A DNA stretch of 64,000 nucleotides from Candidatus Aminicenantes bacterium (lineage in GTDB: Bacteria; Acidobacteriota; Aminicenantia; UBA2199): positions 14,974 to 78,973 of the forward strand of contig DAOWCY010000002.1 of the NCBI GenBank assembly GCA_030639305.1, written 5' to 3'. A program made the translations under genes and the position numbers. The notes under the pieces were generated by a model. The model saw nothing but the letters and a program-made list of their open reading frames with translations, made no database searches and had not been told where the DNA came from. Below are positions 44,947 through 63,837 of this stretch, piece by piece. The stretch's first letter is position 1. Each line of letters opens with the position of its first letter.

Positions 44947-44998
44947 CCCTGGGGATTCATTACCTTCTTTCTAAACCAGGGATTTCTCTTATCATTTT

Positions 44999-46786
44999 CT
45001 ATTTGTTTTTTATGTTTTGTACTCTTAGCCTGATATAAGGAGCATTCTTATGATCCGGGTAAAGTTTTAAATACTTTTCCCAGTAAACGGCGGCTTCGGT
45101 TAACTTTCCCTGCTGCGATAATAGAAGCCCCATGTTGTATAGAGCAACCATATCTTCAGGGGTCGATTCGAGAACCTTCCTGTACTCGAAACCTGCTTCC
45201 GCATACCTTTTTTGGAAATAAAAAATGTTGGCCATGTTGAGATGGGCTGAAACTCCTTCGGGATTCAATTCTATAGACTTGCGAAACCTTCTCAGCGCTT
45301 CATCGAAATTACCTAATTGCACCGATAGCATCCCGGCTTTCTGCCACATGCTGTGAGCTTTCGGGTAACGCTGCAAAAATTTGCGGTAGAATACATCGGC
45401 TTCCCGATACTTCCCGCGCATTTGCAGGGTGATGGCCTGGCGGTGCCATTTGCCTCCCTGCTTAACAAATTGACGCACACTATCCCTGCCGGGCGCCATA
45501 TTGCCGGTGACATAACCTAAGGATTGCAGGTCCCGGGCAATTTTTGGATCTATCTTCGATGAAGCGGCTGCCGGGGCGGAGAATTCTTTACGTAACTTTT
45601 TCAACTCCCTGACTTTTCCGGGCATTTTCAACCCCAGGTCGTTTTTTTCCAGGGGGTCTTTTTCTAAGTCCCAGAGATGATCTATAGGTGACGATTCCCA
45701 TAACCAATTCCGGCGGCGCAGGCCGGTCACTTCAGCAAGCCCGAAACCGCGCGCGCCCATCAAGGTTTCTAAGGGGATGGCCCGGTCTAAGGAACCGGGA
45801 TCGTTTAAAAGATCGCTGCCGTCATTGGCCGGTACTTCCGCACCTGTATATTTTAGAATTGTAGGATAGACGTCTACTGTGGCCGATAGTCTTTCGTATT
45901 TTTCTCCGCGGGGCACTCCGGGACCGGAAATAATTAAAGGAATGCGGGTGGTGACGCCATGCAGTAGATGCCCGTGAGAGTCTTCGCCATGGGCGCCGAG
46001 GGCTTCGCCGTGATCGGAGATGATGACCCATAAAGATTCTGCCATGGGCCGGCCGGTCTTTTCCAGTTCTTCGCTGAGGCGGCGCACCTGCATATCGGCA
46101 AAGGCGACTTCACCTAAGTAAAGGCCGCGGATTCCTTTTTCGTTGTTAAAAGGGCCGGTGGGGGCGTTGTAGGGAAAATGGGGGTCGAAGAGATGAACCC
46201 AGAGAAAAAGTTTCTCTTCTTTTTTTATCCCGGTTTGCAGCCATTTCGAAACAGCGTCGAGTGTGAGATCACCTTTCCTTTCGGGCATTTCAATGGATTC
46301 CAGGGCGGAGTCGAATTTTATTTTATCATCGAAATATTCAAAACCCTTTTTAAAACCGAGGCTGTGGTCTAAGACGCGGCAGGAGACAAAAGCGGCGCTG
46401 CGCCAGCCTTTAGGGCGCAGTAGTTGGGCCAGGGTGGGATTATGGTTGGGCACGGGTTTTTCGCCGTTCACCCGGACGCCGTCTTTCCAGGGCCAGGTGC
46501 CTGTTATCATGCTCCAGTGGCTGGGCCCGGTGGTGGGCACGGGGGTCATGGCGTCTACGACCACTAACCCTTTGGCGGCTATAGAATCGATAAACGGGGT
46601 GGGGCTGGGATTTAATTTGCCCAAAAAGCCGTTGGCGTCGCGTCTCCAGGTGTCGATAGAAACCAGCACCACGGTGCGCACATTTTCTTTACTGCCGAAG
46701 GAGTCCTTTTTTTTAGAGGTGCATCCTGCGAAGAACCCGGCTGCCAGGAGAACCGAGAGTAGTAGAGTTATATTTCGTAATTTCAT
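44999..46786 (-). CDS. Sulfatase-like (alkaline-phosphatase superfamily) hydrolase/transferase fused to C-terminal TPR repeats
   Basis: Lipoprotein-like signal (LLAAGFFAGCTS). Metal-site motifs VLVSIDTWRRD and TPVPTTGPSHWSMITG (Thr nucleophile, as in phosphoethanolamine/phosphoglycerol transferases, rather than Cys/Ser as in true sulfatases). About 150 aa of TPRs at the C-terminus. Confidence 0.7.
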   Translation of the reverse strand: MKLRNITLLLSVLLAAGFFAGCTSKKKDSFGSKENVRTVVLVSIDTWRRDANGFLGKLNPSPTPFIDSIAAKGLVVVDAMTPVPTTGPSHWSMITGTWPWKDGVRVNGEKPVPNHNPTLAQLLRPKGWRSAAFVSCRVLDHSLGFKKGFEYFDDKIKFDSALESIEMPERKGDLTLDAVSKWLQTGIKKEEKLFLWVHLFDPHFPYNAPTGPFNNEKGIRGLYLGEVAFADMQVRRLSEELEKTGRPMAESLWVIISDHGEALGAHGEDSHGHLLHGVTTRIPLIISGPGVPRGEKYERLSATVDVYPTILKYTGAEVPANDGSDLLNDPGSLDRAIPLETLMGARGFGLAEVTGLRRRNWLWESSPIDHLWDLEKDPLEKNDLGLKMPGKVRELKKLRKEFSAPAAASSKIDPKIARDLQSLGYVTGNMAPGRDSVRQFVKQGGKWHRQAITLQMRGKYREADVFYRKFLQRYPKAHSMWQKAGMLSVQLGNFDEALRRFRKSIELNPEGVSAHLNMANIFYFQKRYAEAGFEYRKVLESTPEDMVALYNMGLLLSQQGKLTEAAVYWEKYLKLYPDHKNAPYIRLRVQNIKNK

Positions 46787-46877
46787 CTGGATATTATAAC
46801 ATCTAAGTCAATAGATTCAAAATGCAATTAAATAACTATCCCGTTTTAGAAAAAATCGGTTTGGTAAGGCGAGATAT

Positions 46878-46960
46878 CGGTAGGGTCCTGCCTTCGGCGA
46901 CCCTGCCGCGAAGCGGCTAATTGGCCGGGGACGCCGTCCCCCTGCGAAGCGGCTAAAAGG
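46878..46960. repeat. Intergenic repeat (GGTCCTGCCTTCGGCGACCCTGCCGCGAAGCGGCTAA and GGGGACGCCGTCCCC hairpin modules)
   Basis: The modules recur at 54229-54368 and inside trmD (10900-10990). Confidence 0.75.
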
Positions 46961-46976
46961 TTACTCAAATTAACAT

Positions 46977-48242
46977 TTACCGGAATTCCTTTACTACCGG
47001 GCTGCCCGGGCTGCCGCCCCGGTTGTCCCATTTTATCGTACCGCTGACTCCTTCATGCCCGGCCAAACCTTCCAGTCCCAGGCGAATTCCCGGCCGGTTC
47101 AAACCTTTCGACCGTATCGAGAGAATAATTATCCAGGCGGCATCATATGCATAGGCGGCGCTGCAAGTGGGAAACACGCCGAATCGCTTCTCAAAATCCC
47201 GGCTGAAGCGGTGATAAATCCCCCCGGTTTTCTCCCGGTCAGGCGGTTGAAAGGGTTCAATCATGTAAATAGGTCCATGGTAAACTGCTTTTAGTTTTTT
47301 TATTTCTACTCCCGGCGTCCAGGGTATACATACCGGGCAAACAATGCCGCTACTTTGAAGAGCTTTTAATAGTTTGGGAATACCGGGCACTTGCAGACAG
47401 AGTGTCAACACATGAGGCTGAAAATCCCGGATTCGTTCCGCAAGCGCTTGAAAGTCAAAGGCGCTGCCTGCGGCGGAGCCGCTTATCGCCCCCCCACGCG
47501 AGTGGGGTTGAAAATCAAGCAAACCCGGAGCCACCTCAAAATGAAATAGCGCCGGTAGGTTCCGCCGTTCCAGTTCTTTTTCCATTTCCGCGGCCGCGGC
47601 CCGGTTGTTTGGGGCTGTACAGGATACCAGCCCCACCCGGCTAAAATGCTTATTCACAATGCCCTCTTTAACCAATAACCCTGCCTGCACCCGGTCATCC
47701 GGCGGCAGGCGGAATAGCCAGGGCACCCCGGCGTGAGTTAATGAAGGCGCGGAAGAGAGAGGCGCGATTACCGGGACGTAAGCTTTTGCGGCGATCTGTT
47801 GGGCAATATGAGCGGCCCCGTCTTTGAACGCAATTATCGCCCATACCCGGTCCTCGTATATCAAGCGGATCACTTCTTTTGGGCCGGCGGCCCAGGGAGA
47901 TCCGGCCCAACGTCGAATCAGGCTAAAATCAACCCCCCGGTATCCGCCCGCGGCGTTTGCCTGTTCGATGGCCAATTTGATTCCCCGGTATAGATCACGG
48001 GCAGCCGGGTCGTCTCGATCAAAAGGGGCAAAAAGTCCGATAGCAATAGAGTTTAACGATGAAGGTTCGATTACGGCGCCTGCCGGTCCGTTAAAAGCGC
48101 GCGGGTCATCGAGCATTCGTTTGTAGGGTGCCTGGGTTTGCGCCTCGACAACCGGGACTGCGATAATAAAGCAGAGTAAAAAAATGAATCCTGCGGTAAA
48201 TAAAAAAGGGGACAGGCCGGAAAAGTTTTTACGAGCTAACAC
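46977..48242 (-). CDS. Periplasmic substrate-binding protein, LivK/branched-chain amino-acid binding family (type I PBP). Start uncertain.
   Basis: KLAIEQANAAGGYRGVDFSLIRRW and the overall alternation parallel the neighbouring paralog. The tracked start 48560 runs through repeat copies. Proposed GTG 48242 (GAGGAA RBS) or ATG 48314 both give a signal peptide ending VEA/QTQ. Confidence 0.65.
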   Translation of the reverse strand: MLARKNFSGLSPFLFTAGFIFLLCFIIAVPVVEAQTQAPYKRMLDDPRAFNGPAGAVIEPSSLNSIAIGLFAPFDRDDPAARDLYRGIKLAIEQANAAGGYRGVDFSLIRRWAGSPWAAGPKEVIRLIYEDRVWAIIAFKDGAAHIAQQIAAKAYVPVIAPLSSAPSLTHAGVPWLFRLPPDDRVQAGLLVKEGIVNKHFSRVGLVSCTAPNNRAAAAEMEKELERRNLPALFHFEVAPGLLDFQPHSRGGAISGSAAGSAFDFQALAERIRDFQPHVLTLCLQVPGIPKLLKALQSSGIVCPVCIPWTPGVEIKKLKAVYHGPIYMIEPFQPPDREKTGGIYHRFSRDFEKRFGVFPTCSAAYAYDAAWIIILSIRSKGLNRPGIRLGLEGLAGHEGVSGTIKWDNRGGSPGSPVVKEFR

Positions 48243-48645
48243 ACCCCGGTTCCTCGTTCCTCGGAACCACCTCCCGGCAAGTCTCGAAGAGGGGGATTTT
48301 GGTTTCTCGATCATCAAAAGCCTGTCTCTTTTGTTGCTTTGCTTTTTTCTTCGTGCCCTTCGTGTACTTCGTGGTTTATGCTTTTGCTTTTTCTCTGTGT
48401 GCTCTGTGGCTATATTAATTTCAAAGTAGGCCGGAAATGTTAAAAAAGGGGACAGGCCGGAAAGGTGCGGCGCACCCAGCCTATAAGGGGGTGTTACCTT
48501 CGCTTTTCTTGAATCATGAGTAAAAAAGGGGACAGGCCGGAAATGTTTTTCGTTTTTCATTTTTTTTCTTTTTTCTTCTTGCCCTTCTTTCCCTTCGTGG
48601 TAAAAAATAAAAAAGGGAACAGGCCGGAAAAGGCCGGAAAGGACC
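48195..48645. repeat. Cluster of four copies of the family-B unit AAAAAAGGGGACAGGCCGGAAA interleaved with the module-C reverse complement (TTCGTGCCCTTCGTGTACTTCGTGG) and module E (GGTGCGGCGCACCCAGCCTATAAGG)
   Basis: Copies at about 48203, 48438, 48522 and 48612, irregularly spaced (235, 84 and 90 nt). The first copy lies inside the signal-peptide region of the SBP gene. Confidence 0.8.
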
Positions 48646-48648
48646 GGT

Positions 48649-49977
48649 TTACCGGTTCAGCGCCTCTTCTTTCGTGTAGAAAACCCAACGGCGATTCTCT
48701 AAAACCGCCAGCGCCGCCGGGCTGATATTATTGAAAACCGCATCGAATTCTTTTTTGCCGGTAACACCGTTATAATGTTTCATCTTTGCCAATTCATCGC
48801 GAATCCTGGCCCGGTTGAGACCTGCCTTTTCGATTGCTTTTATTAACATGCGCATACCGTCGTAGGCATGGGCGGCGTAGGTTTCCGGGTTTTCACCGAA
48901 ACGCTTATAAAAAAGGCGCTTGAACTCTAGGTACCGCGGATCGCTGCCGGCCGGGTTATAGGGATAACCGGCTGCCACCTTGCCGATATTCTCTCCCGCG
49001 TTTTTTATGAACTCCGGGGAGACCATCCTGTCGCTGCCGATAAACCACTGGTTCATGCCCATGGCCCGCATCTGTTTTAAAATGAGGGCGGATTCGGCGG
49101 CATTACCATAGGTGATGACAGCTTCGGGATTAAGGCTTTTGATGCGCCGCAGTTGGAGGGTAAAGTCCGTATCTCCCACCGGGTAATTAAGCTCCGTTAG
49201 GAAAGGATGCCCCGATCTTGTGGCCGCATCCCTGAACTCATCGATGCTGATACGCCCATAACGATTATTGGCTCGCAGGGCGGCTACCCTGGTTAGCTTA
49301 AGCTTTTTAAAAACAAAATCCGCTAATAAGTAACACATTTGCCGGTCATCGGTGATAACACGAAAAACCCAGGGTATGCCGGTTTCGGTAAAAGTGGGAT
49401 CGGTATCGCCGCTGTTCATCATTGGGATTTCCACTTTCAAGGCTACCCGGATGGCTATGTGGCTGTTGGCGCCGTCGATGGTGCCGAGAATAGCCCATAC
49501 GTTCTCTTTGTAGGCCAGGTGGATGATTTCATTGCCGCTGGCGCCCCACAGCCCGTTATCGTTGCGCACGACCAACCGGTAGGGAATTTTCCGGCGGCCA
49601 TAGCCTCCCGCGGCATTGGCTTGTTCAACGGCAAGCTTTGCCCCTTGCAGCATCTTACGCCCTAAGCTCTCCTCATGAGACACCCCCCCGGTGGCTACCG
49701 ATACCGTGGGTTCGATAGGCCCTAAGAATCCTATTTTTACGAAATCCACCTGTTCCGGTTCAGGGATTTGCCGTCCGTAGCCCCGGTACTCCAGGGGGTC
49801 AAGAAAAAATTGCTTGTAAGGTTTCGTAAACTTTCCAAAAGGAACATACCGGTCGGGGGTTTTACCATAACTGCCGGTTTCTTTCTTTTTTTCGTCTTTT
49901 TGGGCGTTCTCCTGCGCGGTCATAGTCAAACCAACTGCCAGGAAAACCAACAATAATAAATAAATATTTTTTTTCAT
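48649..49977 (-). CDS. Periplasmic substrate-binding protein, LivK/branched-chain amino-acid binding family
   Basis: Start moved to ATG 49977 (MKKNIYLLLLVFLAVGLTMTAQ). AKLAVEQANAAGGYGRRKIPYRLVVRNDN is typical of the Leu/Ile/Val-binding family. 442 aa. Confidence 0.8.
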   Translation of the reverse strand: MKKNIYLLLLVFLAVGLTMTAQENAQKDEKKKETGSYGKTPDRYVPFGKFTKPYKQFFLDPLEYRGYGRQIPEPEQVDFVKIGFLGPIEPTVSVATGGVSHEESLGRKMLQGAKLAVEQANAAGGYGRRKIPYRLVVRNDNGLWGASGNEIIHLAYKENVWAILGTIDGANSHIAIRVALKVEIPMMNSGDTDPTFTETGIPWVFRVITDDRQMCYLLADFVFKKLKLTRVAALRANNRYGRISIDEFRDAATRSGHPFLTELNYPVGDTDFTLQLRRIKSLNPEAVITYGNAAESALILKQMRAMGMNQWFIGSDRMVSPEFIKNAGENIGKVAAGYPYNPAGSDPRYLEFKRLFYKRFGENPETYAAHAYDGMRMLIKAIEKAGLNRARIRDELAKMKHYNGVTGKKEFDAVFNNISPAALAVLENRRWVFYTKEEALNR

Positions 49978-49989
49978 TCTTGCCTCTTT

Positions 49990-50050
49990 TTGCCTCCGGC
50001 GGCCCTGCCGGGGGCCAAACTTTTGTAAAAGTTTGATCAAAACTTCTGTT
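49990..50050 (+). repeat. Short family-A element
   Basis: GCCTCCGGCGGCCCTGCCGGGGGCCAAACTTTTGTAAAAGTTTGATCAAAACTTC. It overlaps the tracked upstream part of ORF 48649-50040. Confidence 0.9.
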
Positions 50051-50061
50051 GAGCGATTCGA

Positions 50062-51258
50062 TTATCTACATGATAAACGGCTATCGTTGGCTCCTGCCGC
50101 CCTCCGCTTTTTATTAGTCTTTAGACCGGGGTAGTAGCCTTTGCCGATGCCTCTCGCCAGCCCGTGACCGGTGCCGATCCAGAGGTCCTGGCCCTGGAAA
50201 TCTAAACAAATAACAAAATGATTGGGCAGAGTTAGTTTTGTGGGGACAGAAAATTGTTCTTTATTTCCTACACCTATATGGGCAGTCCATGTTTTATCCT
50301 CCGGCTTGTCTTTTTTGTAAGTCACCCAGGTGTCGGATTTGAAGTCTACCAGTACAGCCAGGCCAAGGTCCGTGGCATTGTAACAGGAAACCCCACTGCG
50401 CCCCAGGGCTAAATTGATAAAATTACTTGCCAGGCCGCTGTCATGGTCCATATAACCGCGCCAGTTCCGGCCATCGTAACGGCTGAGCCCGAAATAGGTG
50501 GAAGCCCAAAGCACGCCGTCGATATAGGATGCCGAGGTGGTAATAATGTGAATTAAACCGTCATCGCGATACAGATCGATTTCCATTTCCTTGTCCGGGT
50601 CCCGGTGTGCGTTCCAGCGCCGTGTTTTTTGGTCCCATTCGAGGATGCCACCGCCCCATACGGCAATATAGACTTTGCCGTCAGCAGCAGCAGCATTGTA
50701 GCACCAGATTTCTTCCATCGGGGCGTTCTTTTCGGTGTATATTTCCCATTCCCCGGTTACGGTGTTATACGAGCTGATCCCGGCGGTTGTGGCCGCCCAG
50801 ACCATGTCACCTAACAAGGCAACGCCATAAACTACATCATTGACCAAACCGCTGTTGAATTGATTAAAACAATCGAAACGCCCGCCGCTGAACCGCGCCA
50901 GACCACCGCCGAACAAAGCCAGCCAGACATCGCCGGTCTTAGCGCTGACAGCGATATCGCTTACCACTTTCCAGGGCAGCCCGTCTTTCTCGCGCCAGCT
51001 TTTCCAGCGCCCCTTTTCGTAAAGGGCCAGCCCTCCTTCGGTGCCTACCCACAGGCGACTGCCGTCGGCTTCGATAGAAAAAATATGATCGTTGGGCAGT
51101 CCGTCTTTTACGTAGAAGGTTTCCCATTCGGTATAGACATAGGGTGAACCGGTTAGCTTGCTTCGGGTTTCAGCCCCTTCTCCAAAAACAAAAGAAATAA
51201 ATAATAAAATTAAAATAAATAATTTTTTTTTCATTTTCTCACTCATACTAAATATCAA
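50062..51258 (-). CDS. Secreted beta-propeller protein with two-component-regulator-propeller (Reg_prop)-like repeats
   Basis: Signal peptide (start may be ATG 51246 or 51234). Six or more repeats of the W/Y-x-G/A-T-x-G-G-L/I-x-x-Y/F type (LWVGTEGGLALYE, VWLALFGGGLARFS, VWAATTAGISSYN, VYIAVWGGGILEWD, LWASTYFGLSRYD, LWIGTGHGLARG). Confidence 0.6.
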   Translation of the reverse strand: MIFSMSEKMKKKLFILILLFISFVFGEGAETRSKLTGSPYVYTEWETFYVKDGLPNDHIFSIEADGSRLWVGTEGGLALYEKGRWKSWREKDGLPWKVVSDIAVSAKTGDVWLALFGGGLARFSGGRFDCFNQFNSGLVNDVVYGVALLGDMVWAATTAGISSYNTVTGEWEIYTEKNAPMEEIWCYNAAAADGKVYIAVWGGGILEWDQKTRRWNAHRDPDKEMEIDLYRDDGLIHIITTSASYIDGVLWASTYFGLSRYDGRNWRGYMDHDSGLASNFINLALGRSGVSCYNATDLGLAVLVDFKSDTWVTYKKDKPEDKTWTAHIGVGNKEQFSVPTKLTLPNHFVICLDFQGQDLWIGTGHGLARGIGKGYYPGLKTNKKRRAAGANDSRLSCR

Positions 51259-51287
51259 AACACATATCAGATGATAGCGCTTCTAAA

Positions 51288-51348
51288 TAAACAAAAGTTT
51301 TGTTCAAACTTTTTCAAAAGTTTGGCCCCCGGCAGGGCCGCCGGAGGT
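51288..51348 (-). repeat. Short family-A element, reverse orientation
   Basis: CAAAAGTTTTGTTCAAACTTTTTCAAAAGTTTGGCCCCCGGCAGGGCCGCCGGAGG. Confidence 0.9.
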
Positions 51349-51350
51349 AT

Positions 51351-54209
51351 TTAAAGCGTTTTCAAATATTCGATAAGATCATTCAACTGGTCTTTAGTCA
51401 TATCATTGGTTACCCCATGCTTATCTTCGGGATTGAACCGGGTCCAGATTTCTTCTAATGTATCCGAACTACCGTCATGAAGATAGGGAGGAGTTTCGTA
51501 AATGTTGTTCAGGTGAGGAACATCGAACTTACCGTGGGTGTCGATAGGGGAACGGGTGCCTACATCGACAATTTCCCGGTTCGTAAAATATGGCCCGGAA
51601 TGACAGAAATTACACCTGTTTTCTTTCGGGATTTCACTCCCGCTGTTGGTGTGGGTGCGTTCGAATAGTTGTTTGCCCCGGCGTTGTGCCGCGGTCAGCC
51701 GGTCTCCTTTTCGATAGCGGTTGGGGTTTCGCGGGATCGTACAGATGTAGCGATCGAGGGCGATTACTTGTTCCGGGGTAAAAGGGTCGATGCGGGTAAA
51801 AAATACAGCTAAGCGGGGTCCACATTGGCGACTCAATGAAGGATTCTTTCCAGTCCACTTAAAAGGTGCGGTGTCCAGGATTCCCCGCAGCGTCCGGTTA
51901 TCCACCGGGTTGACTCCTAAGCCGTCCGGCTCGATGTCATAGGTAATCCCGTCTATGCCGCCGTCAGGATGACAGGTATGGCAGGAAAACTGCCGCCCGA
52001 AGGTTATTTCCGCACTGTGAAATATACGTTCTCCGGCACGCTGCAGGGTAATTTCCTTTGGCCCTCCCAGGTCGATAACAGCGACACGCTCTTGTTTGCC
52101 CACATCTATGACAGAGATGGTATCGTCCAACCCGTCCGCGGCATATACAAACCGTCCGTCTTTAGAAACAGCCAGTCCGCGGGGACTGCGGCCCACGGCA
52201 ATTCGTTTGACAACGTATTCGGTAGATATACCCAGGTGGTTGGGCAGCACCTTTCGACGCCGGTTCTCACCGGCATCTCGCAATATTCTTTTCATTTTTT
52301 TTAGGTCGATGACTGCCACTGCGTCGATGCCCCCGCCGGAAACATACGCATACTTGCCGTCAGGGGTGATAACCAAATCCGTGGGGTCGGCAAAGTAATG
52401 GCCCGGCTCATCCAATAAAAGCTGGTCTACCCGGCCATCTTTCCAGAGAACCCCGATGCCGTTGGTAATCATCCAGCCTTGCATGACGCGGGTAATGGGG
52501 ATCAGGCTTTTTGTCCGCAGTAAAGTAACCAGGGCAAATTCTCCATCCGGGGAAAAATCGATGCCTTGAACCAAATTGGCTCCCGGGATCATGATGCGGT
52601 TCTCCACTACAGACCGCTTCGTGTCGATTACAGTCACTTCCGACCGTGATGGAGTGCGAAACTTAACAAAATGAGAAAGATTATTGGTAATAAAAACAGA
52701 GTTACCGTCCGGGGAGCGGTTAACCGCCCAGGCGCCGCGCCCGGCGGACAGGCGTTTTACTTCGCCGCCAGCTCCGGGGGCAGGGCCGTCCCTGTTAATA
52801 TCCACGACTGATATGTCATAGGAACCGGCGTTTGCCACATAAAGCATATTATCATCAACCCCTGTTATCAGGCCATGGGGTTCGTCTCCTACGGGGATAT
52901 GTTTCAAAACCTTATAACTACCGGCATCGATGACGGAAACGGTATCCGAACCGCGATTGCCGACAAAAATTCTCCTGCCGTCGGTAGAGAGGCATACGCC
53001 GTGGGGTTGGTTTTGTACTTTTATTTCCGCTATTACGGTTTGTGTCCCGGTGTCTACCACGATCAGGCTGTCGGAGGCTTCACAAGCGGCAAACAGCCTT
53101 TTGCCGTCCGGGGAGAGAGCCAGGCTAAAGGGAGTTTTGTAGGTAACGGCAGCGGTTTTGGCCGCGGAAGTTCCCGGCTTACAATGCGAAAGCTTTTTTT
53201 TCATCTGCCCATAGTCGAAATTTTTGCCGGTATGACAGCGGATACAGGTTTTACGTGCCGGTTTCACCAGTCCTGTTTTTGCGGCGGCGGCACCGCGCCT
53301 TTCAACGTCCTGTACGTGCTTGTTCCCGGGACCATGGCAGCTTTCGCACTGCACGCCCCGTACCGCTTCGGCCCCCTGTCCCGGTGCATGGCAATTGAGG
53401 CACAAGGCAGTTTTTTGCGGATTACCTTTGACACGATGTTTACCTGCATTTGCACAGGGCTTTTTCGTACTCAGGACTGCATAAGCGTCGGCATGGGCCG
53501 AAAGACGCCACTTACTGAAGACATACCCTTTGCCTGCTCCTTTATGGCAACGGGCGCATACCATCGCACCCACGTATCGAGAATCCTGCGCCTGCGCCTC
53601 GAGGTCATTGTCGGGGACAGGGCCGCCTCCGTCGGGGCTATCACCGCCTCTCCCGGGGTGCGACACCCGGTTTAGAAATGTTTTGTAATCGTAGGGTTCG
53701 GTTTTTAGCACCGACGTATGAGAGCCTTTGGCCTTATGACAGATTATGCAAAAATCTTCTCCGGGCATTTTTAACCCGGCCTTTACCGCCGCTTCCCGGT
53801 CGGCCATTACCGCCGCATCGATATATTCACTGCCGGGACCGTGACAGTATTCGCATTGAACGCCGTCCTCTAAAAAAAACGCCTCATCCCGCTGCCACGC
53901 TTCAGTATCGGAAGCGGTGGCGTGGCACTGCAAACAAATAGGACTGTCGAAAGGATCGACGTCGATGCCCGAAAGCATGGCGATTTCCACAGCCTCAGGC
54001 ATGGCCAACGCAGCATAACTCCGGGCATGTCCGGATAAATACCAGCGGCTGAATTGGTCCCGTCCTTCCTGGTGATGACATTGGCGGCAAACAGCTTCTC
54101 CTACGTAAAACCGTTCTGTTTCAGCCGATGCCAATGAGAAAACCATAATTATTAAGGCTGGGCACAAAATAAATAATGTAGTTAGTTTAATTTTTAAATA
54201 TTTACTCAT
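51351..54209 (-). CDS. Multiheme cytochrome c (10 CxxCH) fused to a YVTN-type beta-propeller and a C-terminal di-heme cytochrome-c-peroxidase-like domain
   Basis: Start moved to ATG 54209 (signal peptide MSKYLKIKLTTLFILCPALIIMVFSLASA), since the tracked TTG start lies in a repeat. Heme motifs: CRQCH, CLQCH, CEYCH, CIICH, CARCH, CLNCH, CESCH, CIRCH, CHTCH, CNFCH. Central repeats YVANAGSYDISVVD and VYAADGLDDTISVID. Confidence 0.8.
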   Translation of the reverse strand: MSKYLKIKLTTLFILCPALIIMVFSLASAETERFYVGEAVCRQCHHQEGRDQFSRWYLSGHARSYAALAMPEAVEIAMLSGIDVDPFDSPICLQCHATASDTEAWQRDEAFFLEDGVQCEYCHGPGSEYIDAAVMADREAAVKAGLKMPGEDFCIICHKAKGSHTSVLKTEPYDYKTFLNRVSHPGRGGDSPDGGGPVPDNDLEAQAQDSRYVGAMVCARCHKGAGKGYVFSKWRLSAHADAYAVLSTKKPCANAGKHRVKGNPQKTALCLNCHAPGQGAEAVRGVQCESCHGPGNKHVQDVERRGAAAAKTGLVKPARKTCIRCHTGKNFDYGQMKKKLSHCKPGTSAAKTAAVTYKTPFSLALSPDGKRLFAACEASDSLIVVDTGTQTVIAEIKVQNQPHGVCLSTDGRRIFVGNRGSDTVSVIDAGSYKVLKHIPVGDEPHGLITGVDDNMLYVANAGSYDISVVDINRDGPAPGAGGEVKRLSAGRGAWAVNRSPDGNSVFITNNLSHFVKFRTPSRSEVTVIDTKRSVVENRIMIPGANLVQGIDFSPDGEFALVTLLRTKSLIPITRVMQGWMITNGIGVLWKDGRVDQLLLDEPGHYFADPTDLVITPDGKYAYVSGGGIDAVAVIDLKKMKRILRDAGENRRRKVLPNHLGISTEYVVKRIAVGRSPRGLAVSKDGRFVYAADGLDDTISVIDVGKQERVAVIDLGGPKEITLQRAGERIFHSAEITFGRQFSCHTCHPDGGIDGITYDIEPDGLGVNPVDNRTLRGILDTAPFKWTGKNPSLSRQCGPRLAVFFTRIDPFTPEQVIALDRYICTIPRNPNRYRKGDRLTAAQRRGKQLFERTHTNSGSEIPKENRCNFCHSGPYFTNREIVDVGTRSPIDTHGKFDVPHLNNIYETPPYLHDGSSDTLEEIWTRFNPEDKHGVTNDMTKDQLNDLIEYLKTL

Positions 54210-54228
54210 TTTACTTGCCTTCTTTGAC

Positions 54229-54368
54229 TTACCTTCGGCGACCCTGCCGGGGGCCAAACTTTTGTAAAAGTTTGATCAAAACTTTTTATAATTTGAAAGC
54301 GAGAAGCGCTCACGCACTGCCCTGCCGCGAAGCGGCTCATAGCCCCCCCACGCGAGTGGGGTAATTTC
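54229..54368. repeat. Composite family-A repeat (short core plus a GCGAAGCGGCTCATAGCCCCCCCACGCGAGTGGGG tail)
   Basis: Between the start of the cytochrome gene and the end of the RM methyltransferase gene. It generates the spurious ORF 54206-54406. Confidence 0.85.
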
Positions 54369-54406
54369 ATTCGTTTCCGGGTGAGGCTGTCCCCCAAAAA
54401 TCCCAT

Positions 54407-56026
54407 TCACTTTACTGTCTTTTTACCCCGGTTTAGTCTTCTCGAAGAAAGCTTCTTCCAAATATCACCGGAAATTTTAATTTCAGCTTCAGAAAAACCA
54501 TAACCTTTCTTTAAAATTACATTATTGGTGTAAGCCAATATTTCATGGATGCTGTATTTTTTTCTCATCATTTTATCTATTTCATCGGCCAATAAAGCAT
54601 TTTGCTCCTTGTAAGGCAATCGTATTTTTTCAACTTCCCCGGGCATTATTTCTAATACGCCGCCACCGTAGCTCCTGCCCGAAATCTCGGCATAGGCGAA
54701 AGAGAGCGAATTGTAAAAACTAGCTGCCAATGCATCGTGTTTCACACTGCTTTTTAACCTTAACCGGTGCATGGTATCAGTGGAATATGCACCCGCTTCA
54801 TTGATAATTAATTTAGGATAATGGTTGTTTCTCCTTAAAAAAAATGCATCCGGCACCCATAAAGACGGCACTATTTGCCATTCGTCCCTGATTCGACATT
54901 TATAACCCTTATGAATGTCGTCCCGTTCCCCAAGCTGCAAGTATTCCAGGGCTTTTTTGTTCTTTTTTAATTCGGCCATTCCCGGGAAAACGAGTAAATA
55001 TGCCCTGGCTCCTGAAATCACATTCCGCTGCCAATCTTCTTTTTTAAATCTCAGGCTGTTGACCTGGACGCTCCTGCCAACTAACGTTCCGGTATAAGCT
55101 TCTAATTCAAACTCTTCAACCGTGTCTGCCGGGACGGTAAAAAATGCGTTCGCTCCGGTTGTAATCCCGACTTCGACATTTGCATAATCCCCGATTAAGG
55201 GAATAGAATTCTCTTTTGATATTTCTTCTAAGAAATCGATTTCCTTTTGCTCCAGGAAATAAAACGTCCACTTGTTCGACCTAAAATCGATTTTTTTAGA
55301 CGGGCTTTTAAGGCGGTTAACTTCGAGTTGTTTCAAACTTTTTATGTCGTCTAATTCTATATGCTCTATCAAATGAGTATTTGAGAGGTTCTTTTCACAT
55401 AAGAGCAAGACAACTTCTTGTTGAATTTCGGGAAAAACCAGTTGTTTAAAAGAAATGATATTTATTTTATTAAAAAAACTTGCTATGAATTCCCGAAGCG
55501 GCCTGGCATAAGAGACTTGCAAAATTTCCGCCGGTAAAACAAAACCGATCTTACCGCTTTCTTTTAACAGGATAGCTGAACCGACAACAAAAGAAACCCA
55601 GGCATTAGTTAACTTTGAATACTTTAGTTTTACCCTTCTAAATATTTTCCCTGCTTCCTCCTGCTGATCGCGGTCGAAATATTGATAACGAATATAAGGT
55701 GGGTTGCCTACAATCAAATCGAATTTTTTGGGGGAAGAATTACAAAAGGTATGAAAATCCATATTTAAAACGGCGGTGTTTTTTAGAGGTATCTGTTTTA
55801 TTTTTTCCGCTTCGACTTCGTCGATTTCTACGGCGGTTATAGAACTATACATATGATTGTTTTCTTTTATTCGTTCTAAGAATACGCCGTCCCCGGCGCT
55901 GGGTTCCAGTATCTCACAACCGCCGCCGCCATTTATTGCCCATTGCAAGATAAAATCAGCGATCTCTCGCGGGGTGTAAAAACCACCTCGCAGTTTCCGG
56001 TAAGATTGGGTCTCAATTAGTTTCAT
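54407..56026 (-). CDS. N6-adenine DNA methyltransferase, Eco57I-M-like, partner of the Type IIG enzyme
   Basis: Motif I ILEPSAGDGVFL, motif IV LIVGNPPYIRY, C-terminal target-recognition region. 539 aa. Overlaps the upstream gene by 14 nt. Confidence 0.8.
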   Translation of the reverse strand: MKLIETQSYRKLRGGFYTPREIADFILQWAINGGGGCEILEPSAGDGVFLERIKENNHMYSSITAVEIDEVEAEKIKQIPLKNTAVLNMDFHTFCNSSPKKFDLIVGNPPYIRYQYFDRDQQEEAGKIFRRVKLKYSKLTNAWVSFVVGSAILLKESGKIGFVLPAEILQVSYARPLREFIASFFNKINIISFKQLVFPEIQQEVVLLLCEKNLSNTHLIEHIELDDIKSLKQLEVNRLKSPSKKIDFRSNKWTFYFLEQKEIDFLEEISKENSIPLIGDYANVEVGITTGANAFFTVPADTVEEFELEAYTGTLVGRSVQVNSLRFKKEDWQRNVISGARAYLLVFPGMAELKKNKKALEYLQLGERDDIHKGYKCRIRDEWQIVPSLWVPDAFFLRRNNHYPKLIINEAGAYSTDTMHRLRLKSSVKHDALAASFYNSLSFAYAEISGRSYGGGVLEIMPGEVEKIRLPYKEQNALLADEIDKMMRKKYSIHEILAYTNNVILKKGYGFSEAEIKISGDIWKKLSSRRLNRGKKTVK

Positions 56027-59000
56027 AAATCTCTTCTATTAATGGGATCAGTTTATCATCGTCTCCCAAATCGAATAATTCTTCTAATTTTTGATCGAGA
56101 GTGCGCTTTAGTTCCGCAAATTGCCGCTCAAGTTTTATTAAAACTCTCTTGTTCTCTCTGCTGCCGTCGATTTCAGATTGCTTTTTTATCATTTTTTCCT
56201 GGAGCCCCGTTATTTTATCATGCAGTTTCTTCTCCTGCGGATTGGAAAAATTTATTTTTCTTATGGGCAGCCTGTTTAGAACTTTCGTTCCCCTGGCAAT
56301 ATACCCGCTTCGAAAAACTTCCCCGATAAGAGAAGAATACCACTCCAGGTATTTTGAGTTTAACAGGGCCTGGATATAAAATAAGGAATATTTAATGCCG
56401 GGAGGCAGCGTGATCCCGCAGTAACCGGCAGTGCCGCCGGATGAGATAAAAGTACGCTGAAAATCCACCGCATATTTATTCCCCAACGAATTCACTCCGA
56501 TAACGATCTTTTCCGTCCAATCCCAGCGGTCGAGGTTCTGGCTTCTCCCGAATTTATACCAATCACCTGTTTTTATCGGGGGGCTGACGTCTCTTTTCAA
56601 AAGCCGGGTTTTAAAATGAGTAAAATATTTGTATGTTTCTTTATATCTATGCTTAAGTTCGCTTTCGGGTATTACTTCCACGCTTGCCCCCGTTTTTTTG
56701 TATGGAAATATAACCAGGGAGTTCGGTTCCAGCAGCCGGTATGTGTTTAAGCGGTTTTCGTTCTTCCCGGACGGTGTTCTATAATAGGGGCGGGTTATCT
56801 CTTTTTCTACTTTCCAGGACAACCCTCCGTTTTCAAAATAGATATAGTCCCCGTCCATCCTTTGTGGAGTAATGATATATATCGAATTCATACTGGTTTG
56901 GATCCCATTGAATACATTGCTTTTCCCCAGGAGTTCAATTAGGGGAATGCTAAGGTTATCGATTCTATCATATGCCTTTTTTAAATAAGGCGGAACGAAT
57001 AGCCAGGCTTCATCATCGAGCTTTGAAATCGGGTATGTTTCAAAACTGTTACTTTTAAAGCCGCCGACCTTCCATTCAGATAGTTTTCTTACCTCGTAAA
57101 AATCACAGGCATTATTTTGAGTTTTAGTTAATATTAATAAACATGTATATGTGGTTCTACTCTTAAACAGTTGCCTGGCTCCAAATGAAATTATCCTTTT
57201 CAGACTGCCGGTACTCGACAGCAAATGTCTCAATTTTTTCCCGGCGCCGACTTTATAAAATTTATTAGGGACGATAAAGCCCAGATAGCCATTTTGGGTA
57301 AGTAGAGAAAGCCCTTTTTCTATAAACAGGAAATATTTATCGAATTGTTTGTGTGCGGATTTATACAATTTTTTATATAGATGAGGGTGTTCTAAGGGAG
57401 TAATCCTTTTCATGTCGTCAGATTTCATATATGGTGGGTTGCCGACAATTACATCATACTTGTTATTTTTAAAATCGAAAGGATTAATGTCCTTTTTGTC
57501 TTTTTCATCAAGTTCAGCTATATCGGCAGGGCAAATCAATGAATTTCCATATTCGATGTTATTCGATAAATTCGACAAAACCGGGAGTTGTTTTCCTATG
57601 GTGACATTATCTTCATTCTCGAGAAGTTTGAGGAGCAGTCCGAACCGGGATGCTTCTACTGCGTTGTAATCTTTATCTACACCATAAATGCAATTCGATA
57701 GGATTTCCCTTTTTAGATTGAAAGGAAGTTTAAAGGTATCGATGTTTGTTCGGATTAACGTTGAACTGTCCGTATTTAAATAGTAATCGATTAATAAGTC
57801 ATTTAACAATTGAAAACTTTCCAATAAAAACGCCCCTGAACCGCAGGCAATATCACAAACTTTTATTTTTAATATCTCCCTACCTGTTTTTCCTGCGCAG
57901 AATGAAGTAATCGACTGTCTTAAAATTTCGTGGATAATATATGTAGGCGTTGTTATGATAGCTTTGTCGATATTTTCCGGTTTTTTCTCGAGAAAAACAA
58001 AATCACCTTTGACAACCAATTTTTCAGAAAGATAAATTTCATAGATATTTCCCAGGATATCGGAAGAAAAAACTGAGAAAGAATAATAACTCTCCGGGTA
58101 ATAGAGTTCTCCTATGATTTCCCAAAATGCCGATCCTAAATTGCCGACCACCTTATTCGATAAAGGAAGGTTAAATAAGCCGGCATTATATTTTTTGTCC
58201 GCTTCTTTGAATTTTTCAATTAACGATTCAAAACCTCTATCCTTTGCAAACTTCAATAATGTTTCCTTTTCTTCTAAATTTCTGTCCTCGCAAACTCTTA
58301 AGAAAATAATACTGTTTAAATAATCCTGGACATAGTCATTTAAAAGTGCTTCCGATATAACAGGCAAATGTTTTAAAATTTCCCTGCCTAACAATAATCG
58401 CCATTCATTGAAATCATTCAAGAATAAGTCGTCTATACTGAAAAGTTTTATTTTATCCTCTATGCCTTGCCATACCCGGTCAAAATTACCGCTGTAAACC
58501 GACTCTCTGCCCATATATTGCTGCAATTCTGCAAATCTTTCTTCATATTCCGTATAGTGAAACACATTTATCCGTGCTTTACGGTAATTATCATCATCTT
58601 CTAAAGGTATCGAACAATCATAGATAATTAAATATTCAAAATTTGAGAGGAGCGAAACCTTTAATTTCCCGGTAAATCCATATCTTCTTATTTGTTTGGC
58701 GGCATCATCGCTCTTCTCGATTAAAATGGCCGGTTTTTTCGCTTCCAGGAAAAACTTTCTTTCGGAAAACAAACGAAACGTGTAGTCGGGTTTTTTTGTG
58801 TGCTCCGAAATGTTGACTTTTAGAGGTTCCTCAAGGATTACTTCCCTCTCATAAGTCGGCATCCTATTCCTATTTTTGATGTCCCACCCTAAAAGCTCAA
58901 ATAGAGGATCAAGGAAATCGTTCCTGAGCTGCATCTCGTTATAATTTGTAGAACGGTAGTGCCCCCGTTCTTTTTCATATTTATCCACGAGATATTTAAT

Positions 59001-59027
59001 GTTCATAACAGCCACTTGAAAACTCAA
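56013..59027 (-). CDS. Type IIG/IIL restriction-modification fusion enzyme (N-terminal PD-ExK nuclease, gamma-class N6A methyltransferase, TRD), Eco57I/MmeI-like
   Basis: N-terminal nuclease motif KPDYTF...FLEAKKP (PD-(D/E)xK). MTase motif I VCDIACGSGAFLLESF and motif IV VIVGNPPYMKSDD. A C-terminal specificity domain of about 400 aa. 1004 aa. Confidence 0.8.
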   Translation of the reverse strand: MSFQVAVMNIKYLVDKYEKERGHYRSTNYNEMQLRNDFLDPLFELLGWDIKNRNRMPTYEREVILEEPLKVNISEHTKKPDYTFRLFSERKFFLEAKKPAILIEKSDDAAKQIRRYGFTGKLKVSLLSNFEYLIIYDCSIPLEDDDNYRKARINVFHYTEYEERFAELQQYMGRESVYSGNFDRVWQGIEDKIKLFSIDDLFLNDFNEWRLLLGREILKHLPVISEALLNDYVQDYLNSIIFLRVCEDRNLEEKETLLKFAKDRGFESLIEKFKEADKKYNAGLFNLPLSNKVVGNLGSAFWEIIGELYYPESYYSFSVFSSDILGNIYEIYLSEKLVVKGDFVFLEKKPENIDKAIITTPTYIIHEILRQSITSFCAGKTGREILKIKVCDIACGSGAFLLESFQLLNDLLIDYYLNTDSSTLIRTNIDTFKLPFNLKREILSNCIYGVDKDYNAVEASRFGLLLKLLENEDNVTIGKQLPVLSNLSNNIEYGNSLICPADIAELDEKDKKDINPFDFKNNKYDVIVGNPPYMKSDDMKRITPLEHPHLYKKLYKSAHKQFDKYFLFIEKGLSLLTQNGYLGFIVPNKFYKVGAGKKLRHLLSSTGSLKRIISFGARQLFKSRTTYTCLLILTKTQNNACDFYEVRKLSEWKVGGFKSNSFETYPISKLDDEAWLFVPPYLKKAYDRIDNLSIPLIELLGKSNVFNGIQTSMNSIYIITPQRMDGDYIYFENGGLSWKVEKEITRPYYRTPSGKNENRLNTYRLLEPNSLVIFPYKKTGASVEVIPESELKHRYKETYKYFTHFKTRLLKRDVSPPIKTGDWYKFGRSQNLDRWDWTEKIVIGVNSLGNKYAVDFQRTFISSGGTAGYCGITLPPGIKYSLFYIQALLNSKYLEWYSSLIGEVFRSGYIARGTKVLNRLPIRKINFSNPQEKKLHDKITGLQEKMIKKQSEIDGSRENKRVLIKLERQFAELKRTLDQKLEELFDLGDDDKLIPLIEEIYETN

Positions 59028-59164
59028 ATTTTGTCATACTATTATATACCATTCTTACCGTTTTTAGTCAAAAACAAATTCAACCGTTAACCCCGGTTAA
59101 ATTATAATACTCCCGGTAAGACAAATAACGGCATACCCCGGTAACTTTTTATTTTTTTGGATTT

Positions 59165-59340
59165 TTAGGGGACAGGCTGGAATGCCACTACCATGGAATT
59201 ACTTTTTGCCTCCGGCGGGGGTGCGGCGCACCCACCCTCTTAGCCTCCGGCGGCCCTGCCGGGTGACGCCCCCATTGAGTTTTTCGTCGGGGGCCAGCGG
59301 CATACCGCCCCTCCGAAAAAGTTTGAACAAACCTTTTTTT
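59165..59340. repeat. Composite repeat: family-B2 unit (GGGGACAGGCTGGAATGCCACT) plus module E plus a family-A variant
   Basis: GGTGCGGCGCACCCACCCTCTTAGCCTCCGGCGGCCCTGCCGGGTGACGCCCCCATTGA is near-identical to part of 61487-61628. Confidence 0.85.
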
Positions 59341-59423
59341 ATTGTCGAAACGAAAATCTTCAAATTGGAGTTGAATTTTACCGGAAAGTATGCTATTTCA
59401 ATAGTGGTGAAAGAGGTTAAATA

Positions 59424-59621
59424 ATGAGTGAAATAATCGATCCAATTATCGTGGAAGTGCGAAAAGCGCGGGAAGCCTATGCGAAAAAATTTAAATATGA
59501 CGTTAAAGCGATGTGTCTCGATCTGAAAAAAAGGCAAGCCCAAAATCCGGGAAGAATCACTTCGCTTCCCCCAAAAAGAATAAAAACTACGGGACCTGCC
59601 ACTCCTACTTTAGCAAAATAA
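59424..59621 (+). CDS. Hypothetical small protein
   Basis: 65-aa ORF with a strong RBS (AAGAGGTTAAATA-ATG). Charged and helical. No motif recognised. Confidence 0.35.
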   Translation: MSEIIDPIIVEVRKAREAYAKKFKYDVKAMCLDLKKRQAQNPGRITSLPPKRIKTTGPATPTLAK

Positions 59622-59629
59622 CAAACCTT

Positions 59630-59792
59630 TGGGACTTTTAGGGGGACTTTTAGGGGACAGGCTGGAGAACCTTCCCCAAAAGAGGCTTGCGTTTATTGAC
59701 TCTCCGGCCCGGGTCTCTCATAGGTTGGGGCGCCGCCCCCTTTTTGGTTCCGGCTTGACCGGGTTGTGGACAGGCTGGAATGCCACTATCCT
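59630..59792. repeat. Repeat cluster: two family-B2 units plus a family-D fragment (GGGTCTCTCATAGGTTGGGGCGCCGCCCCC)
   Basis: TAGGGGACAGGCTGGA at about 59662 and GGACAGGCTGGAATGCCACT at about 59770. The D fragment matches 25790-25830. Confidence 0.75.
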
Positions 59793-59842
59793 TTTTGTTT
59801 GAAAAATTTTATCTTTCTATAGCCCGGAAGCCGGCAAAGGGG

Positions 59843-59871
59843 TTGACAAAGCCTTTTTTTTATATTATTAA
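59843..59871 (+). promoter_or_regulatory. Sigma70-like promoter for the MNT gene (near-leaderless)
   Basis: TTGACA (59843-59848), 17 nt, then TATTAA (59866-59871). ATG at 59881. Confidence 0.35.
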
Positions 59872-59880
59872 TTAAGTACG

Positions 59881-60198
59881 ATGAACGATAAAGAAATGTT
59901 GAAAGAGCTGCGCAAGCTGCTGACAGACACTTTCCCGGGGCAAATCGAAAAAATAATCCTATTCGGCTCCAGGGCTTATGGAAAGGCGGCAAACGACTCC
60001 GATTATGATGTGCTGATCGTTCTAAAATCAGGTTATAATTGGCGTTTAAAACAATCCATCCAGGAAACCTGCTGGGAAATCGATTATAAATACGATATAT
60101 TGACAGACGTTAAAATAATCTCCGCGGCTGAATTACAAACCATCCGGGGCAAACAGCCCTATATCACGACGGCACTGCAAGATGGGATTGCCCTATGA
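59881..60198 (+). CDS. Nucleotidyltransferase (MNT-type antitoxin-like), second copy
   Basis: ILFGSRAYGKAANDSDYDVLIVL is the GSx(n)DxD nucleotidyltransferase motif. 105 aa. Confidence 0.75.
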   Translation: MNDKEMLKELRKLLTDTFPGQIEKIILFGSRAYGKAANDSDYDVLIVLKSGYNWRLKQSIQETCWEIDYKYDILTDVKIISAAELQTIRGKQPYITTALQDGIAL

Positions 60199-60257
60199 CG
60201 TTAAACCCGGCAGAACGCAAGCAACTGATACGTTATAATATCGAGAAATTAATATAA
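60195..60257 (+). pseudogene. Possible remnant of the cognate HepT-like gene (20 codons, truncated)
   Basis: A short ORF MTLNPAERKQLIRYNIEKLI overlaps the MNT stop by 4 nt (ATGA), as expected for a coupled HepT. It terminates after 20 codons just before a repeat cluster. Confidence 0.2.
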
Positions 60258-60327
60258 TAAGCTTTGATCAACGACAAATAAAACGTAAGTGAATCACCAG
60301 GAATTTCCAAATCTTTCTACCGGTGGG

Positions 60328-60643
60328 CTTTTAGGGGACAGGCTGGAATGCCACTAGGCCGCGAAACGGGCAAAATCCAAATTACAAATCACAAACGCCA
60401 AATCTCAAACAATGGCCTGCTGAGGCTAAAATTATACACCAAAAAAAGAAGAAAGGCAAAAACGATCTTGCCTCCGGCGGCCCTGCCGGGGGCCAAACTT
60501 TTGAAAAAGTTTGATCAAAACTTTTGTTTATTTAAAATCAAAGGCGCTCACCCGCTGTCTCTTGCGGCGAAGCCGCTTATCGCCTCCCCGTGCGCACGGG
60601 GTTTAGAATCAAAAGCGCTCACCCGCTGCCCGTGCGCACGGGG
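60328..60643. repeat. Composite repeat: family-B2 unit, short family-A element and two CGCTCACCCGCTG..CGTGCGCACGGGG hairpin modules
   Basis: GCCTCCGGCGGCCCTGCCGGGGGCCAAACTTTTGAAAAAGTTTGATCAAAACTTTTG at 60472-60528. The tracked ORF 60348-60725 is an artefact of this region. Confidence 0.85.
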
Positions 60644-61447: not shown

Positions 61448-61486
61448 ATTTTTTCTCCTGTTTTTAGGCCAAAAGCATAGTTATCC

Positions 61487-61628: not shown

Positions 61629-61654
61629 TCCAGCATTTTTCGGTTGAAACTGCA

Positions 61655-62407: not shown

Positions 62408-62417
62408 TTTCTTCTCC

Positions 62418-63242: not shown

Positions 63243-63260
63243 TTTTTTCTCCTATTGCCG

Positions 63261-63683: not shown

Positions 63684-63699
63684 TACTCTTTGTTTTTTA

Positions 63700-63760: not shown

Positions 63761-63837
63761 TTTTTCATTTTACCGTAACACTATTATGTTACAGTGTTAC
63801 GGTTTTGTCAACTAAAAAAAATTTTTTTTTTGTTTTC

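Follow-up and report, generated by a model that had tools for sequence, protein, structure and literature searches.

A periplasmic decahaem homologue of hydrazine synthase beta-gamma from an Aminicenantes bacterium, co-inherited with an HzsA-like haem protein

The 64,000-nucleotide stretch analysed here (the window; Candidatus Aminicenantes bacterium, contig DAOWCY010000002.1) carries on its minus strand, at 51351..54209, a gene for an exported 952-residue cytochrome with ten CxxCH motifs, which sequence and model comparisons identify as a fused homologue of the hydrazine synthase (HZS) subunits beta and gamma, bearing two extra cytochrome c554-type modules. The gene is a single uninterrupted open reading frame (ORF) of 952 codons, running from an ATG at 54209, preceded by AGAAGG, to a stop at 51351-51353. 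The N-terminus of the product (MSKYLKIKLTTLFILCPALIIMVFSLASA, with Glu as the next residue) resembles a Sec-type signal peptide (aa 1-29; 54123..54209, minus strand) with cleavage after ASA, as read from the sequence rather than by a predictor. The CxxCH motifs start at aa 41, 92, 119, 154, 218, 270, 288, 322, 743 (CHTCH) and 866 (CNFCH), against a chance expectation of 0.025 computed from the Cys and His content of the protein itself, and each of the ten is either invariant or conserved at more than 90% among 50-55 full-length homologues. None of the other ORFs of the window has more than one CxxCH. An earlier note on this DNA, made from the sequence alone, had described a ten-haem cytochrome with eight N-terminal and two C-terminal haem motifs around an embedded propeller, an architecture that is borne out by the intact ORF. 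The same note had asked whether frameshifts might inflate the motif count; frameshift and chance origins were both rejected, because the ORF is single and colinear with its homologues and every motif is conserved among them.

The eight N-terminal motifs fall into two cytochrome c554-type tetrahaem modules on the minus strand. Module 1 (~aa 35-190; 53640..54107) contains the CxxCH motifs at 41, 92, 119 and 154 and three invariant extra histidines (His61, His164 and His184), while module 2 (~aa 210-345; 53175..53582) contains those at 218, 270, 288 and 322 and the extra His239 and His342. The Pfam model Cytochrome_C554 (PF13435) matched twice, with 82 bits against a cut-off of 20.8, and the structure of cytochrome c554 (1bvb) was matched at aa 209-362. 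The c554 fold combines three bis-His haems with one five-coordinate haem, which module 1 fits since it has three extra invariant histidines for its four haems. The window gene belongs to an Aminicenantes-like subgroup with a deletion of 4-5 residues after the eighth CxxCH (aa 326-332, in the region of 53220-53235) that removes the 'GIHG' histidine of module 2 kept in most relatives, so that one module 2 haem of this subgroup may have a different distal ligand or lack one.

The modules are followed by a seven-bladed YVTN beta-propeller (aa 356-714; 52068..53144, minus strand), the part of the protein that is homologous to HZS beta. Pfam YNCE/Lactonase propeller matches were confined to aa 363-474, and the match to the NCBIfam model hydrazine_BC spanned the whole propeller (aa 356-711). 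In the AlphaFold2 model of the protein (mean pLDDT 78.7, above 90 in the propeller) 28 strands form seven four-stranded blades between aa 360 and 713, confirming the seven-blade-like propeller previously read from repeats in the translation. The best sequence match in the Protein Data Bank (PDB) by phmmer was HZS beta (5c2v_B; E 6.5e-43), with aa 359-701 aligned to residues 14-347 of 352 and thus to its full length, and a profile of the propeller likewise matched HZS beta over its full length (E 2.3e-57). The structural search proposed in the earlier note, Foldseek with the AlphaFold model, also ranked 5c2v_B first, with a TM score of 0.90 and an rmsd of 2.0 Å over all 352 residues. The propeller carries a conserved long loop (aa 567-580) and a helical insertion (aa 636-665); the loop is nearly invariant in the family and aligns with the HZS beta loop that bears a Mg-binding Glu.

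The C-terminal part (aa 715-952; 51354..52067, minus strand) is a di-haem domain homologous to HZS gamma by profile and PDB matches. Its first motif (C743/C746/H747) aligns with that of the HZS catalytic haem gamma-I and marks a candidate catalytic haem, and its second (C866/C869/H870) corresponds to the second gamma motif and is predicted to hold an electron-transfer haem. A profile built from the last 250 residues of 35 phylogenetically spread relatives matched HZS gamma (5c2v_C) with E 2.4e-28 and the nearest peroxidase, the cytochrome c peroxidase (CCP) of Nitrosomonas europaea, with E 2.9e-9. By phmmer, 5c2v_C was matched in two stretches covering the C-terminal domain (E 6.2e-16), and Pfam CCP_MauG (PF03150) reached 15 bits, below its 25.6 cut-off. 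The domain is clearly a di-haem domain of the CCP superfamily, and by sequence comparison it is closer to HZS gamma than to CCP or MauG. The CCP/MauG-like label it had first been given therefore holds for the superfamily and not for the closest family: the relation to PF03150 is at superfamily level only, and a plain CCP or MauG was rejected as closest family because HZS gamma scored far better in the profile search.

Trp785, Gln795 and His911 are invariant in the domain, as is Cys796 (codon at 51822..51824, minus strand), found in all of 55 close and 35 spread relatives and aligned with gamma-Cys165. Since gamma-Cys165 is the third covalent haem link in HZS gamma (Hagglund et al. 2025, PMC12758564), Cys796 may cross-link the candidate catalytic haem in the same way. 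Gln795 aligns with the distal Gln of CCPs, and HZS gamma has lost both this Gln and the inter-haem Trp of CCPs. The catalytic Glu of CCPs (Glu114 position) is not kept and, in an ungapped reading of the profile alignment, is replaced by the invariant Thr805. The AlphaFold2 model was of low confidence at aa 749-806 and had been computed without haem, and was not used for residue geometry in this domain.

Searched as a whole, the protein found as its three best NCBIfam enzyme models those of the HZS beta-gamma fusion (hydrazine_BC, E 1.3e-65), of HZS beta (hydrazine_beta, E 6.9e-57) and of HZS gamma (hydrazine_gamma, E 1.3e-18). With HZS beta and gamma on top among both family models and solved structures, the earlier suggestion of a specialised periplasmic redox module rather than a routine cytochrome is well supported. 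At least 1780 relatives were found in the protein database, more than 100 of them full-length at 55-82% identity, and these are annotated only as 'YVTN', 'lactonase' or 'multihaem cytochrome'. Judged by its sequence, the cytochrome fits 'clade I' of the non-anammox HZS beta-gamma homologues described by Hagglund et al. 2025 (Genome Biol Evol, PMC12758564). According to that study, clade I proteins carry eight extra haems as two c554 domains, keep the gamma-165 Cys, have Trp at gamma-144, do not conserve the beta-loop Glu and have lost the alpha Tyr591/Zn site; their genes are ordered alpha-like, FG-GAP/CRTAC1, beta-gamma-like and then two substrate-binding proteins, and the authors concluded that they are not hydrazine synthases and left their function open. 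The window protein likewise unites the propeller and then the gamma-like di-haem domain in one polypeptide, has its eight N-terminal CxxCH as two c554 domains, Cys at gamma-165 and Trp at gamma-144, and is followed by two substrate-binding protein genes. The order HzsA-like, FG-GAP/CRTAC1, beta-gamma-like was not found in the window and is present in a public scaffold (L001, below) and in 65/65 other loci.

When one genome of each species was scanned, 423 loci emerged, of which the best 80 came from Aminicenantes and other Acidobacteriota, Omnitrophota, Gemmatimonadota, Fidelibacterota, Calditrichota, Planctomycetota, Verrucomicrobiota, Bacteroidota, Chloroflexota and Desulfobacterota. For counts of operon members, ORFs were called in 82 non-redundant loci from more than 10 phyla and classified by phmmer. 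The operon consists of an HzsA-like gene, an FG-GAP/CRTAC1-like propeller, the cytochrome, a Reg_prop propeller and two LivJ-type binding proteins, with gaps of about zero between ORFs. The HzsA-like and then the FG-GAP/ASPIC gene lay directly upstream of the cytochrome in 65/65 loci that had enough flank; a Reg_prop-type propeller gene lay directly downstream in 72/73, followed by a LivJ-type binding-protein gene in 67/67 and by a second one in 56/61. The HzsA-like partners show homology to HzsA throughout their own length (E 6e-40), with 117-164 bits on the NCBIfam model hydrazine_alpha against a cut-off of 800. All but one of the 65 keep the canonical C(I/V)GCH (the alpha-I CxxCH), and at the position of alpha-Tyr591 the motif in the related loci reads CIGCHEDRELAPPN, with no Tyr. 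These data show a periplasmic decahaem HZS beta-gamma-like fusion that is co-inherited with an HzsA-like haem protein.

Between lineages, the HzsA-like genes (for instance L004 6012-7979, L023 and L001 1396-3000) varied in their second haem motif. Exactly 50 residues past alpha-I it is a CxxCH in Planctomycetota and an expanded CX4CH (CSGTDCH, CATAGCH, CSTAACH) in about 20 loci, and it is absent in a group of Aminicenantes and Thermoanaerobaculia. In one partner, from Fidelibacterota, it is the first CxxCH that is missing (GFIGFP). A cytoplasmic RidA/FkbO(chorismatase)-like gene, with no signal peptide, precedes the operon in 18 of 58 loci (for instance L001 145-1362 and L016 5162-6196), and a DAHP-synthase-like gene precedes it in 7; a link to a chorismate-derived small molecule is possible. 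The recurrent flanking genes were only those for RidA/FkbO-like, DAHP-synthase-like, TPR, sulfatase-TPR, GFO/IDH/MocA, radical-SAM/BATS and C-N hydrolase proteins, and outside the operon no gene indicated what the substrate is. On the downstream side, about 16 other loci have divergent FG-GAP/TPR pairs similar to those of the window (below).

In the window the downstream half of the operon is complete. Directly downstream of the cytochrome lies the secreted Reg_prop-type single propeller (50062..51258, minus strand), the neighbour already recognised in the earlier note, and then, on the same strand, a LivJ-type periplasmic binding protein of the Peripla_BP_6 family with a signal peptide (48649..50040) and a divergent second Peripla_BP_6 binding protein (46977..48560), the real start of which is probably internal. 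All operon products encoded in the window have signal peptides, as read from the sequence, and no transporter genes lie within the operon beside the binding proteins. Upstream of the cytochrome, the window contains an Eco57I-like restriction-modification (RM) pair, small toxin-like genes and a GntR-ABC operon, without HzsA-like or FG-GAP genes. The RM pair (54407-59027, minus strand; Eco57I/MmeI-like) comprises a 1004-aa fused enzyme and a 539-aa methyltransferase; its GC content is ~0.40 (0.38-0.41), compared with ~0.50-0.54 in adjoining genes, and the pair is probably a horizontally acquired island.

The RM pair and the cytochrome are separated by a composite intergenic repeat of 118 bp (54232..54349, no strand assigned) that is common to two scaffolds of one public assembly. 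One of these, L001, is 99.87% identical to window 41412-54349 and runs upstream into FG-GAP, HzsA-like and RidA/FkbO genes; the other, L086, is 99.99% identical to window 54232-64000 and then runs into a Roc-COR gene. The two overlap solely at 54232-54349 (L001 4856-4991; L086 9678-9795), a segment made of short repeats dispersed through the window, and three more independent contigs end inside it or within ~10 bp. No independent contig supports the RM-to-cytochrome junction. The window contig is thus probably chimeric at 54232-54349, through an assembly join across the repeat, which is the probable reason why the upstream half of the operon is missing, and the source organism very likely has the standard operon. 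Real recombination between repeats at this site is a less economical alternative.

Two intergenic elements recur in the window and look like REP- or MITE-type repeats. The first, of 50-70 nt with the core GGCGACCCTGCCGGGGGCCAAACTTTTGTAAAAGTTTGATCAAAACTTTT and an internal palindrome, is present in at least 8 copies, mostly just after or between genes (12812-12832, 23948-24017, 41252-41300, 49997-50045, 51293-51349, 54236-54286, 60475-60525 and 63893-63937). The second, of ~40 nt (GCCCTGCCGCGAAGCGG...), occurs at 12895, 47467 and 54321. Elsewhere in the window, defence- or toxin-like genes (13372-16926, 20261-20683 and 59881-60198) encode a PIN toxin, a 974-aa TIR-AAA(STAND)-TPR protein, a HepT-like RNase and an MNT-like nucleotidyltransferase. 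Two paralogues of ~540 aa (33800-35473 and 35950-37554, minus strand), adjoining an ABC-2 permease-like gene, have as their sole recognisable domain a C-terminal Peptidase_S74 intramolecular chaperone, which occurs in phage tail spikes and endosialidases. Genes for FG-GAP/ASPIC-UnbV (CRTAC1-like) proteins, some fused to TPR, cluster with genes for a TPR protein and a sulfatase-TPR fusion at 27122-30157 (minus), 37841-41245 (plus), 41522-43315 (plus), 43219-44946 (plus) and 44999-46786 (minus).

By analogy with HZS, we tentatively propose a periplasmic HZS-like heteromer that reduces a small oxidant, with the cytochrome as its catalytic, electron-input subunit. Electrons from the periplasmic cytochrome pool would pass through the eight c554-type haems to haem 10 (gamma-II-like) and from there, with Trp785 as relay, to haem 9 (gamma-I-like and linked to Cys796), where the oxidant would be reduced. 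This oxidant would most plausibly be NO or a related N-oxide, because in HZS haem gamma-I binds NO and is fed with electrons by gamma-II. The product may then travel through a propeller-gated tunnel that leads past the conserved loop and reach the haem in the HzsA-like partner. Taking the operon as a whole, it is possible, though more doubtful, that its six genes encode an uncharacterised class of periplasmic, tunnel-connected two-site haem enzyme with 11-12 haems, a cousin or precursor of HZS whose role in sediment bacteria from over 10 phyla would be small-molecule chemistry of nitrogen oxides (or linked to peroxide) other than hydrazine synthesis, with the binding proteins and extra propellers delivering or sensing a second substrate.

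Several observations weigh against a role of this kind. Scores on the HZS models are far below the curated cut-offs (222 against 1250 bits for hydrazine_BC, 193 against 560 for beta and 67 against 625 for gamma). Trp785, the counterpart of the inter-haem Trp of CCP and MauG, occupies the gamma-His144 position. Gamma-Asp168, which holds an axial water in HZS, is not conserved, with Leu800 or Arg799 opposite depending on gap placement, and the beta loop does not retain its Mg-binding Glu, with Arg574 and Met576 at the aligned positions in the phmmer alignment. For Asp168 only non-conservation is claimed, since the aligned residue shifts with the gap; an 'Asp168 to Arg' active-site swap, suggested by phmmer, was dropped, as the profile pairs Arg799 with gamma-Arg167 and Leu800 with Asp168. 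Because the retained Trp and Gln are features of peroxidases and MauG, peroxide or oxidative chemistry is equally compatible with the pocket. The HzsA-like partner is not in the window, where tblastn found no alpha-like gene, and no N-cycle or quinol-dehydrogenase gene recurs near the operon in the related loci or occurs in the window. We know of no substrate for any member of the family.

Peroxidase chemistry and outward-directed oxidative chemistry are serious rivals to the proposed reductive role, because the pocket keeps the Trp and Gln of CCP/MauG and the binding proteins hint at nitrogenous ligands. As a haem-extended CCP, the di-haem domain would reduce H2O2 with the eight c554 haems as built-in donor and the other operon products as accessories. 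Retention of the inter-haem Trp785 and the distal Gln795, both lost in HZS gamma, favours such an enzyme, as do the full-length match of the C-terminal profile to N. europaea CCP and the anaerobic life of many carriers, which need peroxide defence. The loss of the catalytic Glu and the sub-threshold Pfam CCP_MauG match argue against it, the E-value for HZS gamma is better by 19 orders of magnitude, and a peroxidase would have no use for an HzsA-like haem partner that is strictly conserved, nor for three further propellers and two binding proteins. We consider a peroxidase unlikely on balance.

Somewhat less likely still is an oxidative enzyme from which electrons flow outward, the cross-linked haem oxidising a nitrogen compound brought by the LivJ-type proteins, or modifying a partner protein as MauG and MbnH do, and the c554 modules carrying the electrons off. 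In nitrifiers c554 is indeed the electron acceptor of an oxidative enzyme, hydroxylamine oxidoreductase; the operon conserves two binding proteins of amino-acid/amide type but no transporter, its recurrent neighbours include RidA/FkbO-like and C-N hydrolase genes, and the MauG-like Trp is retained alongside weak matches to MbnH and MauG. These matches are, however, much weaker than the similarity to HZS gamma, no target-protein motif or quinone-cofactor subunit was identified, and the RidA/FkbO-like protein lacks a signal peptide and is found in less than a third of the loci.

A true hydrazine synthase and a decahaem conduit are effectively excluded. That the carrier is an unrecognised anammox bacterium with a genuine hydrazine synthase, as a 2025 cold-seep study proposed for HzsA-like genes, could appeal to the gamma-Cys165 equivalent and to the transcription of such genes in sediments, where their carriers were called anammox. 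We regard it as highly improbable: all three NCBIfam HZS models score 4-9 fold under their cut-offs, the alpha-like partners have a canonical CxxCH and lack a Tyr where HZS has alpha-Tyr591, other residues stand in place of gamma-His144 and gamma-Asp168, the operon departs from those of anammox bacteria in its gene order and extra genes, no hydrazine dehydrogenase or other multihaem gene lies in the window, and Hagglund et al. 2025 (PMC12758564) rejected the same reading. Given its scores far below the cut-offs, the Trp in place of gamma-His144 and the loss of gamma-Asp168, the cytochrome is not a hydrazine synthase and its end product is not hydrazine; nor is there evidence of anammox, hydrazine dehydrogenase and other anammox genes being absent from the 64 kb of the window, which was the scope of the search. 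The hydrazine-synthase-like character suggested in the earlier note is supported as homology with HZS beta-gamma, with the refinement that the enzyme itself is not a hydrazine synthase and that no anammox context is seen in the window. Even less probable is an ordinary MtrA/DmsE/OmcA-type conduit for extracellular electron transfer, which could invoke ten haems, a signal peptide and weak matches to DmsE-family and GSU2203 decahaem models and is refuted at the level of family membership by the scores on these models (TIGR03508, 32 bits against a cut-off of 192; NF041028, 34 against 325), by c554-type haem modules, by 600 of 952 residues devoted to the propeller and an enzyme-like di-haem domain, and by an operon with no porin or outer-membrane partner.

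To our knowledge, hydrazine synthase was long thought to be without relatives. Its non-anammox homologues are now disputed, with one 2025 study calling their carriers anammox and another rejecting this on residue grounds. Dalcin Martins et al. 2023 had already pointed to hzs-like genes from Phycisphaerae and KSB1, and the 2025 cold-seep study counted HzsA-like carriers in ten phyla as anammox bacteria, with transcripts of up to 414 TPM. The present data support the sceptical view of Hagglund et al. 2025, and metagenome surveys should accordingly not count such genes as markers of anammox. What the window contributes is a clean Aminicenantes-like example of a recently described family rather than a new kind. 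Beyond that description, we add that the Reg_prop gene is a near-universal operon member, that the Gln is peroxidase-like, that Asp168 is not conserved and that the partner has CX4CH variants. A near-invariant operon with a Reg_prop propeller and two transporter-less binding proteins remains to be explained, as does a catalytic pocket in which the Trp and Gln of peroxidases stand beside the Cys of the HZS haem link. The family bears on how anammox arose and on how 'hzs' genes ought to be annotated, and its function is open to testing because there are cultured carriers, such as Syntrophobacter fumaroxidans, Opitutus terrae and Thermogutta terrifontis; in the proteomics literature for the first of these we found nothing on the cytochrome homologue.

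Among known systems, the anammox HZS (Kuenenia stuttgartiensis, PDB 5C2V chains B and C; fused as HzsBC in Scalindua) shares with the window protein the seven-bladed propeller with the same insertions (TM 0.90), the gamma-type di-haem fold, with an open catalytic site at the first CxxCH and an electron-transfer haem at the second, a Cys at the place of the one that in HZS cross-links the catalytic haem and, in the relatives, a co-encoded HzsA-type subunit. It differs in that identity is only ~28% and the window protein has eight more haems, Trp for His144, neither Asp168 nor the loop Glu, and a conserved peroxidase-type Gln, while the HzsA-like partner of its relatives lacks the Tyr/Zn haem site and the operon adds unrelated propeller and binding-protein genes. 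The cytochrome c554 (CycA) of N. europaea (PF13435; 1BVB) resembles the N-terminal modules in the tetrahaem unit, the CxxCH spacing and the number of distal histidines, whereas in the window protein these modules are tandemly duplicated and fused to an enzyme, and the c554 equivalog model scores it at 48 bits against a cut-off of 400. Bacterial di-haem CCP and MauG/MbnH (PF03150 superfamily; N. europaea CCP, 1IQC) share the two-haem fold, the inter-haem Trp, the distal Gln and the region of the C-terminal 'HDG' motif, but the window protein lacks their catalytic Glu, has an extra Cys aligned with the haem-linking Cys, is fused to a propeller and eight haems, and is matched by their Pfam model below threshold. 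Its closest counterparts are the clade I proteins, for instance those of S. fumaroxidans, T. terrifontis, Aquisphaera giovannonii and Paludibaculum fermentans, from which the Aminicenantes-like subgroup is set apart by its deletion of 4-5 residues and by an alpha-like partner (in L001) without the second haem domain.

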